Made by a program: the position numbers and the translations under genes. From a virus, in IMG/VR virus record IMGVR_UViG_3300028591_000144: 33,480 nucleotides of DNA; one strand, given 5' to 3'. Shown here one piece after another: positions 32,126-32,826 of this stretch. The notes under the pieces were generated by a model. It was not told the DNA's origin and searched no databases. It saw nothing but the letters and a program-made list of their open reading frames with translations. Positions within the stretch are counted from its first letter, which is position 1. Every line of letters starts with the position of its first letter.

Positions 32126-32154
32126 TTGACAGCTTTAACCAAATATGATATAAT
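32126..32154 (+). promoter_or_regulatory. sigma70-type promoter TTGACA-17-TATAAT (TG-extended), tandem promoter 2
   Basis: Hexamers read from sequence. Confidence 0.8.
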
Positions 32155-32233
32155 AAAAACACCAAGAGCAAGAGTAGGTCAAGATTCAAAATGTGCGCCT
32201 TGAAAAATTTCTTGGAAGAGCCGAAAAAAAGTC

Positions 32234-32262
32234 TTGACAAACTTAACCAGATATGATATAAT
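32234..32262 (+). promoter_or_regulatory. sigma70-type promoter TTGACA-17-TATAAT (TG-extended), tandem promoter 3
   Basis: Hexamers read from sequence. Confidence 0.8.
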
Positions 32263-32426
32263 CTGGTTGTAAGGTAAGAAGCAAGCCAAGTGATGAGAAA
32301 ACTGATAGTCGGGTGAGAGAGAAGCGGTTACTGCTAATACACCTGCGCTAAGCGACTCGTAAAAATAGCTAAAAGCAAAAACAAAAAACTTAAGTGTAAT
32401 GAAAATTTAGTAAAGAGGTTGATACT

Positions 32427-32777
32427 ATGTCTACTAAGAAGATGTCCTATGTTACTGCCGTTGCCACTGTCCTCGAGGGTGGAGAGATCACTGAGGAAGT
32501 CCGTGAGCGTCTGGAAGCCCTGAAGGCTTCGCTGGAGAAGCGTGCTTCTCGTAAGTCTGAAGGCCCGACCAAGGCTCAGAAGGAGAACGCTGAGCTGGCT
32601 GAGAAGATCTACGGGGCTATGGTCCCTGAGGTTGAGTACAGCAATGCGTCCATTGCTGAGCTGCTTCCCGAGCTTGAGGGTGCAACCCCGCAGAAGATTA
32701 GTCCTCTGATGAAGCTCCTCGGTGAGCGGATCGTGGCCACTAAGGTCAAGGGCAAGGCCGTCTATCGGCTGGCCTAA
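32427..32777 (+). CDS. hypothetical protein (116 aa) with GC-rich, strongly biased codon usage. Lys/Glu/Ala-rich, possibly nucleic-acid binding
   Basis: ORF track. SD AAAGAGGTTGATAC. About 160-nt leader fed by three tandem strong promoters. Followed by terminator 32791-32826. Confidence 0.7.
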   Translation: MSTKKMSYVTAVATVLEGGEITEEVRERLEALKASLEKRASRKSEGPTKAQKENAELAEKIYGAMVPEVEYSNASIAELLPELEGATPQKISPLMKLLGERIVATKVKGKAVYRLA

Positions 32778-32790
32778 AAGATAGAGGGTA

Positions 32791-32826
32791 AGCTACTATA
32801 AGAAAGCCCCTACTGAAAAAGTAGGG
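32791..32826 (+). terminator. rho-independent terminator
   Basis: aaagcccctact-gaaaaa-gtaggggcttttt. Confidence 0.9.

Follow-up and report, generated by a model that had tools for sequence, protein, structure and literature searches.

What kind of product requires a phage to place three promoter-like sites and a long leader ahead of one small gene whose protein matches no named domain? The question is raised by the gene at 32427-32777 in a 33,480-nt stretch of viral DNA (IMG/VR record IMGVR_UViG_3300028591_000144), referred to below as the window. The features of the locus are collected in Table 1. Our preferred reading, to which we give a probability of about 0.6, is that the gene and its signals form a self-contained monocistronic early cassette that would give maximal output of an abundant nucleic-acid-binding protein. 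The carrier is presumably a lytic phage that infects a rumen bacterium of the low-GC Gram-positive type, with the cassette lying in a small-gene and presumably early region of the phage genome.

The gene, its promoters and its boundaries

The open reading frame (ORF) is rich in lysine, glutamate and alanine (13, 17 and 15 residues, respectively), as a sequence-only reading of the window had described it, and its Shine-Dalgarno (SD) sequence lies 8 nt ahead of the ATG. The G+C fractions at the three codon positions are 0.63, 0.41 and 0.66. The GC content of the gene is 0.53-0.56, compared with 0.366 for the whole window, and the step is limited to the ORF (0.357, 0.527 and 0.383 in 300-nt bins). 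At third positions (GC3) the window has ~0.35; all plus-strand ORFs between 12 and 33 kb range from 0.15 to 0.56, and the real neighbours from 0.22 to 0.33. The claim of the sequence-only reading that third positions are more GC-rich than in any neighbour therefore holds locally but not window-wide, where ORFs 1207-1599 and 1663-1980 (~30 kb away) reach 0.67-0.68.

The codon bias goes beyond what base composition accounts for, the effective number of codons (Nc) being 41 compared with 56 expected from GC3 at synonymous sites alone. Adenine occupies 4% of the third positions, none of the 13 lysine codons is AAA, and of the six arginine codons four are CGT and none AGA. Of all 65 window ORFs it has the highest value (0.774; median 0.51) in a codon index whose reference set is the family genes from other loci. 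The same preferences are seen when the codons of 169 distinct family genes from other loci are pooled. AAA has a frequency of 0.12, compared with 0.73 in the window background, and ACA, GTA, TTA, CCA, ATA and AGA are each at or below 0.04, while T-ending codons are kept or favoured (GCT 0.48, GGT 0.49 and CGT 0.57). The GC3 of family genes is 0.5-0.8 at nearly every related locus, where the locus medians are 0.3-0.5. Such a purge of A-ending codons is the pattern expected under selection on translation. Raised GC3 (0.44-0.68) with low A at third positions is also seen in ORFs 1207-1599, 1663-1980, 4355-4540, 5462-5827, 8614-8949 and 28387-28656, the last four of which have the next-highest values of the family-referenced index (0.68-0.72); these six may be a small set of similarly optimised genes.

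The alternative that the gene was recently imported from a donor richer in GC, its composition being left over from that source, had been offered from the sequence, and it gains something from the sharpness of the GC step at the ORF borders. It is contradicted by the rest of the composition. The bias is common to the 169 family genes, which are 47-97% identical and lie in AT-rich contigs; only A-ending codons are purged, with T-ending GCT, GGT and CGT preferred; the GC rise ends at the ORF borders and the flanking signals are the phage's own; Nc is far under the GC3 expectation; and a scan of 185,579 species genomes contains no relative. Since the bias is found in many diverged phages and T-ending codons are retained, a recent GC-rich import is excluded for practical purposes, and we regard it as very improbable.

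Upstream of the gene, promoters P1 and P2 each match the sigma-70/sigma-A-type consensus at 12 of 12 positions and carry the additional TG. The sequence-only reading had listed three stacked promoters; these two are perfect, but the third, at 31937, is weaker, with only three of six matches in its -35 element. The window has just three perfect TTGACA-17-TGnTATAAT sites, two of which are the pair stacked before this gene. Promoters with at most one mismatch number 15 (0.03 expected by chance), all on the plus strand between 15 and 33 kb, and strong promoters are a trait of this genome region. Stacking recurs in the family. A stretch of 650 nt or more is available upstream of 153 distinct family genes, of which 3, 27, 71, 46 and 6 have zero, one, two, three and four promoters, respectively, matching at least 11 of 12 positions within that distance, so that 123 have two or more; the mean plus-strand density in these loci is 1.13 per 650 nt. 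From the ATG of a family gene to its nearest promoter the distance is 75-200 nt; ordinary window genes have leaders of ~30 nt. In the family promoters the -16 region is of the TRTG type, and consensus A-tracts lie upstream.

A 6-bp inverted repeat (CCAGAT...ATCTGG, 32247-32252 and 32261-32266) flanks the -10 element of P2 and has no counterpart at P1. At the equivalent place CCACA-N3-TGTGG is present in 40 of 296 family promoters, all within one subgroup. A common operator in the family promoters is unsupported, inverted repeats being found in 36% of them and in 32% of others.

The weaker site at 31937 belongs to a second type of promoter-like unit, here termed class II. Around ten plus-strand copies are present in the window, against 0.17 expected (16479, 19178, 22256, 22999, 25809, 27368, 29512, 30340, 31933 and 32932), and the units are also found in most related loci. 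Their layout is a long GC-rich hairpin, then TTTGTGCAATATnCCATATTGCAATTTTCCT, then an extended -10 element. The two halves of TTTGTGCAATATnCCATATTGCAATTTTCCT make a palindrome, TGCAATAT-N3-ATATTGCA, which overlaps the -35 element. The copy upstream of the gene falls in repeat families D9/D17, and BLAST places copies of its hairpin at 25713, 27294, 30270 and 32884. From their sequence the class-II units look like an operator-controlled class of promoter.

At the 3' side of the gene the textbook terminator of the sequence-only reading is borne out, with a GC-rich stem followed by a U-tract. The terminator and the second long hairpin beyond it fold together with -52 kcal/mol (z = -9.1). A strict terminator-like hairpin occurs within 130 nt past the stop codon in 93 of 163 family genes, compared with 33 of 642 random windows. 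Among the loci that share the gene, nucleotide similarity extends over the ORF in ~68 loci, the leader in ~26, the promoters and the modules between them in 10-28, and the flanking genes in 0-4. By this comparison the promoter-leader-gene block alone is common to the loci, and the flanks differ.

Table 1. Features of the locus around gene 32427-32777, in window coordinates
Feature	Position	Strand	Details
Long GC-rich hairpin preceding class-II units	31836..31876	+	GCGCTCAGTCTCCGG...CCGGAGACTGAGCG; repeat families D3/D4/D17
Class-II promoter-like site	31918..31964	+	palindrome-like TTTGTGCAATATTCCATCTTG; -35 TTGTAT 31937-31942; 16-nt spacer; TGc-TATAAT 31956-31964
Non-coding module A, 3' of class-II site	31965..32125	+	10-bp hairpin 32029-32052; no U-tract terminator
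Promoter P1	32126..32154	+	TTGACA-17-TGaTATAAT, perfect consensus; A-rich tract upstream
Module I-79	32155..32233	+	conserved GTGTGCGC, hairpin 32198-32215, then GAAGAGCCGAAAAAAA
Promoter P2	32234..32262	+	TTGACA-17-TGaTATAAT, perfect consensus
164-nt 5' leader	32263..32426	+	purine-rich start GUAAGGUAAGAAG; SD AAAGAGG 32412-32418
Structured RNA core of leader	32293..32370	+	RNAalifold and covariation
Leader core helix P1	32293-97 with 32356-60
Leader core helix P2	32306-15 with 32340-50
Leader core helix P3	32323-26 with 32332-35
Leader core 3-bp knot-like helix	32351-53 with 32368-70		added by hand; crosses outer helix
Protein gene	32427..32777	+	ATG start, 116 aa; codon bias, predicted fold
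Intrinsic terminator	32801..32836	+	14-bp stem 32801-32833, GAAAA loop, TTTTTGTT tail
Second long hairpin, 16 bp	32838..32876	+	part of next class-II unit (promoter-like site 32915-32965)

The leader RNA and the segments between the promoters

The leader belongs to a family of 22 members that lie upstream of different paralogues. Its core is folded by RNAalifold, run on the alignment of the family, into three stacked helices, and the minimum free energy fold of the window's own leader gives the same helices. Overall 99.1% of cells are paired, and nine pairs are changed on both sides. None of 500 shuffled controls matches this, and structures slid by 1-3 columns pair only 21-41%. The core contains invariant G-U pairs, which indicate an RNA of the plus strand. 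The 3' part of the leader is an invariant A-rich tract (AGCAAAAAYAAAAAACUUAAGUGU) ahead of the SD sequence. A covariance model of the leader (R1) gives 30 matches with E <= 1e-13 in 652 kb, including window 32290-32398, and all 30 are on the plus strand directly upstream of family genes. A BLAST search with the leader places 20 of 21 matches upstream of family genes. A hairpin of the window that would enclose the SD sequence and AUG (32406-32412 with 32432-32438) was rejected, its conservation being 4.82 compared with 4.87 in mismatched gene pairs.

The motif corresponds to no curated Rfam family. At the gathering threshold Rfam 15 has no match in the window, riboswitches and ribosomal-protein leaders included; with E <= 10 over 31750-32900 there are only sub-threshold terminator-like matches, and over eight related loci Rfam returns transfer RNAs (tRNAs) only.

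Other paralogues have further types of leader, which are mosaics of a 5'-terminal purine-rich hairpin, a pseudoknot-like element and a hairpin before the SD sequence. These small modules are almost confined to the regions upstream of family genes; the pseudoknot-like element has 53 of its 55 distinct sites within 160 nt upstream of one. It reads GCCTTG-[CCTAC]-TAAAAGGC-ttaagaatctg-[GTAGG] (for example at L024 9930-9975, L038 3860-3900 and L080 3825-3870), with the compensatory variants GTCGC/GCGAC, CCTGC/GCAGG, TCCAC/GTGGA and GCTAC/GTAGC. Its copies are mostly identical, and it is not in Rfam. The leader of the window gene would most likely act in stabilisation or processing of the mRNA, as a feedback operator for the protein itself, or in both. 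Its attachment to a single protein family favours a functional link, yet simple co-inheritance predicts the same association.

The segments upstream of the leader are also conserved. Clustering of 334 promoter-to-promoter and promoter-to-ATG segments from related loci gives discrete families, to which all three window segments are assigned. Module A has copies with 88-94% identity at loci L062, L024, L051 and L025; its hairpin varies by G-U and Watson-Crick exchanges among relatives, and its fold has z = -2.1. The I-79 family has 20 distinct members, with invariant flanks around a hairpin in which four pairs show compensatory changes, and no U-tract follows that hairpin. The A-tract of I-79 sits where the UP element of P2 would be. 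Two small ORFs within these segments were rejected as genes. A 41-aa frame at 31990-32115 in module A is frameshifted by indels in L024 and L025, and a 21-aa frame at 32192 in I-79 has ATG in this phage only (GTG in most relatives), its middle part changing along with the hairpin arms. The comparison identifies the inter-promoter segments as conserved non-coding modules. Module A and I-79 both lack a U-tract terminator, and therefore upstream transcripts should read into the gene.

Some relatives have a tRNA-like 3' half in the inter-promoter module before family genes, comprising a T-arm (GGTTCAACTCC) and a matching acceptor-like stem (L038 ~3685-3800, L044 ~4004-4115, L075 ~846-970 and L081 ~2475-2600); neither ARAGORN nor Rfam calls it a tRNA. 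Locus L023, a 974-nt JGI contig, carries an inverted duplication at 57-226 centred on the loop of the module A hairpin (window 32039-32042). This is most likely a fold-back artefact of assembly or library construction at a natural hairpin.

The protein family, its predicted fold and the surrounding genome

The 116-aa protein has 231 homologues with 60-97% identity. A broader profile gives 1,101 clusters at 90% identity, and an exhaustive HMMER search 1,454 representatives at 50% identity, nearly all of which are 110-130 aa in length. Family members have neither a Pfam domain nor a name. Their source records are metagenome assemblies throughout, from rumen or gut by sample and record names, and related contigs extend up to 228 kb and 239-241 kb with many small same-strand genes. 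Relatives often have 2-5 paralogues per 10-20 kb, and over the searched loci there are 197 family ORFs in several subfamilies; no second copy of the gene was found elsewhere in the window.

Outside this group the family is sparsely represented. Distant homologues (35-37% identity, PHROG 30233) lie among small hypothetical genes of 140-kb Enterococcus phages; these hypotheticals were the only hits of a protein search of a phage collection, in which a DNA search had no match. IMG/VR contains distant relatives only, and the scan of species genomes provides no clue to a host or prophage. Nothing significant was returned for the protein by Pfam (E <= 1), NCBIfam (at cut-off) or PADLOC, PHROGs matches are only to families of unknown function, and a literature search on rumen jumbo phages found no paper on the family.

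The AlphaFold2 model, based on a 49-sequence alignment, has a mean confidence (predicted local distance difference test, pLDDT) of 90.8. Two N-terminal helices (residues 8-16 and 23-42) are followed by a predicted C-terminal winged helix (approximately 49-116) comprising helices 49-64, 73-77 and 88-97 and a beta-hairpin at 102-115, which corresponds to the winged-helix topology H1-(b1)-H2-H3-b2-wing-b3. The invariant residues of the family are K38, R39, P47, K49, Q51, Q89, K90, K106-K110 and Y113. A family-wide KPT.KQ motif opens H1, Q89 and K90 open the recognition helix H3, and K106, K108, G109, K110 and Y113 lie in the wing. In the model, the invariant residues of H3 and the wing are located where winged helices touch nucleic acid. 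The protein is thus probably a winged-helix nucleic-acid binder, with DNA the first candidate ligand. Among viral proteins the model best matches an uncharacterised one, also 116 aa long, of gut-metagenome origin (E = 1.9e-6), and 13 of the 49 aligned members have weak matches to the winged helix-turn-helix of Mnd1.

The protein could be placed in none of several known groups. The signature of Z-alpha domains (an Asn and a Tyr conserved in helix 3, and the wing motif Pro-Pro-x-Trp) is absent. Profiles of ArsR/SmtB, PadR, MarR and Fur give scattered sub-threshold matches across the 49 members, and visual inspection of the alignment revealed no metal sites. TubR, the centromere-binding protein of type III partition systems, is encoded beside the tubulin-like GTPase TubZ and a tubC repeat array. 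Matches to TubR by Foldseek are few (best E = 0.034), and the tubulin/FtsZ family is absent from the gene tables of the 20-kb loci, where the Pfam matches are T5orf172 and PC4 only. HU/IHF-type proteins such as SPO1 TF1 are set apart by the lack of a Pfam match and by the predicted helical and winged-helix fold. A PDB profile search has as its best match TipA (E = 0.63), in a different region of the protein. TubR, ArsR/SmtB, PadR, Z-alpha and BVU3908 (2l01) are all winged-helix proteins without significant sequence match to the family, and the phage family is set apart by its own two-helix extension at the N terminus and by the KPT.KQ motif.

Rare large relatives contain two or three copies of the winged-helix part. 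These are P0273 (1,078 aa), which has a HIRAN DNA-binding domain (E = 2.8e-14), and P0222 (1,394 aa), with a sub-threshold BRCT match. A tRNA-Ser(CGA) gene lies at window 26135-26215, and a tRNA-Lys(CUU) at L038 5196-5270; other sites in relatives are L027 3853-3933, L024 955-1026 and L001 7885-7942. The tRNAs in relatives sit directly downstream of family genes. The tRNA-Lys(CUU) reads AAG, which makes up 88-100% of family lysine codons.

The first third of the window (1-11,340) is organised unlike the 15-33 kb region, in periodic repeat units of ~1.1 kb. Immediately before ribosome-binding sites it has 12 copies of AGGTAGACGGAACGCCTTAAAGACTCCG; there are also eight copies of a GC-rich block (AACCGCACGTGCTGGGTAGGGCTGGGCAGC...) and around ten of a terminator combined with TATTGCAAAAAAAATTTTTTTGATATA, which may be a third class of promoter. 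Its genes are GC-richer (GC3 up to 0.68), and none of the 15 near-consensus sigma-70-type sites falls there. Elsewhere a direct repeat of 285 nt with 77% identity (17401-17685 and 28365-28649) covers the starts of ORFs 17426-17995 and 28387-28656, which are probably paralogous genes.

Proposed function of the cassette

How the cassette might work can be set out from these elements. Host polymerase of the sigma-A/sigma-70 type would start at P1 and P2, aided by their extended -10 elements and upstream A-tracts, and the weaker class-II site would probably add initiation further upstream. With no terminator between the promoters, all transcripts would run on into the gene, carrying conserved non-coding modules together with the leader. 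The leader would present in turn its purine-rich 5' end, the structured core of ~80 nt, the A-rich single strand and a good SD sequence. A coding sequence freed of most A-ending codons would be tuned for translation, and the strong terminator would end a single-gene unit and leave a strong hairpin at the 3' end of the mRNA. The product, a small and slightly basic protein with a C-terminal winged helix, would bind nucleic acid stoichiometrically rather than catalytically, as a nucleoid-associated protein of the phage or one that globally coats or regulates DNA. The sequence-only reading had called the gene very highly expressed; what stands is that it appears built for high output, given signals that recur in more than 150 relatives, and the protein is probably made in bulk. 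The analysis demonstrates the sequence signals and their conservation, covariation in the RNA, the codon statistics and a predicted fold; from these we infer that all three sites are transcribed, that the product is abundant, made early and bound to DNA, and what the leader does.

Several points weigh against this reading. The three promoters are known from consensus matching, and near-consensus promoters are common between 15 and 33 kb, so a single strong one would be unremarkable and only the stacking and the long leader stand out. The comparison loci were all selected for carrying the family gene. The codon index is referenced to the family rather than to host ribosomal-protein genes and is partly circular. 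Taken whole, the leader shows no exceptional stability (z = +1.8), since the invariant A-rich single strand makes up its 3' half. On the protein side, the Foldseek matches to winged helices are generic (E 0.03 or worse) and leave the ligand unspecified, winged helices can also bind RNA or protein, and a net charge of about +2 to +3 is low for a bulk coater of DNA.

The main competing accounts differ in what the protein would bind. It might be a sequence-specific regulator of transcription, for example binding the TGCAATAT-N3-ATATTGCA palindrome at the class-II -35 element as an on/off switch. Most structural neighbours of the winged helix are dimeric repressors (ArsR, PadR, MarR and Fur), the N-terminal helical hairpin could dimerise, and the palindrome-bearing units occur about ten times in the window, in most related loci and once directly upstream of the gene. 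We nevertheless think this unlikely. A regulator would seldom call for perfect promoters in a stack together with optimised codons and 2-5 paralogues, the family's own promoters have no common operator, and co-occurrence with class-II units is uninformative when all the loci come from one phage group. We hold equally low expectations of an RNA-binding autoregulator that binds its own leader core, spreads over the A-rich tract and blocks the ribosome-binding site in the manner of T4 gp32, its cellular target being RNA or single-stranded nucleic acid. The exclusive association of leader and family would suit it, but is also expected if promoter, leader and gene travel as a cassette; the conserved structure lies ~40-55 nt from an SD sequence that is not sequestered, and the hairpin of the window that could enclose SD and AUG is not conserved. 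An abundant early effector of counter-defence or host takeover, whose winged helix binds a protein and for instance blocks a host nuclease or nucleoid protein, is a poorer candidate still. In its favour, the genes are surrounded by numerous short ORFs on the same strand that have host-type promoters of their own, the family diversifies quickly and is present in several copies, and T7 offers a precedent in which three stacked host promoters and a processed leader precede the 117-aa Ocr. Against this, PADLOC and PHROGs give no functional match, conservation is strongest at basic residues of the helix and wing that face DNA, and 60-97% identity across many phages is high for an arms-race gene.

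A different objection concerns the RNA. The upstream promoters might make small non-coding RNAs from module A and I-79, leaving P2 alone to serve the protein gene. The modules are kept as units, recombine independently of the gene and have covarying hairpins, and in some relatives they include a hairpin with a U-run (L004) or tRNA-like elements. However, the modules of the window lack a U-tract terminator, and I-79 would give only ~70 nt, its end being the A-tract of the promoter that follows. With no terminator and so short a module, transcripts could hardly fail to read through unless they undergo processing, and we consider separate small RNAs quite improbable here.

The cassette can be compared with well-studied systems. 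In Bacillus subtilis the hbs gene, encoding HBsu, is served by two promoters, at distances of ~210 and ~180 nt, and has an extensively structured 5' untranslated region and a stable mature mRNA; on the preferred reading it resembles the cassette in specifying a small abundant DNA-binding protein from a monocistronic mRNA with a strong SD sequence and a terminator (PMC5737220). It differs in being a host gene for a protein of HU fold, neither protein nor leader having sequence similarity to those of the phage, and the maturation by ribonucleases Y and J1 demonstrated for hbs is conjecture for the phage leader. The early region of T7 has promoters A1, A2 and A3, the RNase III site R0.3 and gene 0.3, encoding Ocr. 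Stacked strong promoters for host polymerase, a structured leader (processed in T7) and a small, presumably abundant early protein of almost the same length are common to both. Ocr, however, is a very acidic DNA mimic made from a polycistronic early RNA, whereas the phage protein is slightly basic with its own terminator, and there is no homology between the two. The phi29 p6 and SPO1 TF1 proteins are small, early and abundant, are expressed from strong host-type promoters (tandem A2b/A2c in phi29), and coat or organise phage DNA. TF1 is of HU type and p6 has its own fold, unlike the winged helix predicted here; DNA coating by the family is conjectural, and no Pfam or PDB sequence match was found for its protein here. 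In the leader of T4 gene 32 a pseudoknotted element is followed by an unstructured A/U-rich tract up to the ribosome-binding site, forming an autogenous operator. The phage leader likewise has a structured element and then an unstructured tract before the gene for a putative nucleic-acid binder. T4 gp32 is an OB-fold protein that binds single-stranded DNA, no homology between the leader RNAs was found in sequence or structure, and feedback in the present case is only conjectured.

A bolder extension of the preferred reading is that the family is a novel class of phage 'chromatin' or nucleoid protein, a winged-helix analogue of TF1 and p6, whose level is fed back through family-specific leader RNAs. 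In this full form we regard it as possible if doubtful. Were it true, large rumen and gut phages would make such a protein in bulk, and the motif at 32293-32370, the pseudoknot-like element and the other paralogue leaders would be new classes of protein-binding cis-regulatory RNA.

The phages invest heavily in this unannotated family, giving it their best promoters, extra copies and optimised codons, which makes it a strong candidate for a central early function. The set of promoters, leader and terminator would be a natural module for high-output expression. The leader motif is supported by covariation and absent from Rfam, and the paralogues hint at more such motifs. To our knowledge almost nothing is known of how phages whose hosts are anaerobes of the Gram-positive type stabilise mRNA or exert feedback control, and the leader motifs may provide a handle on both.

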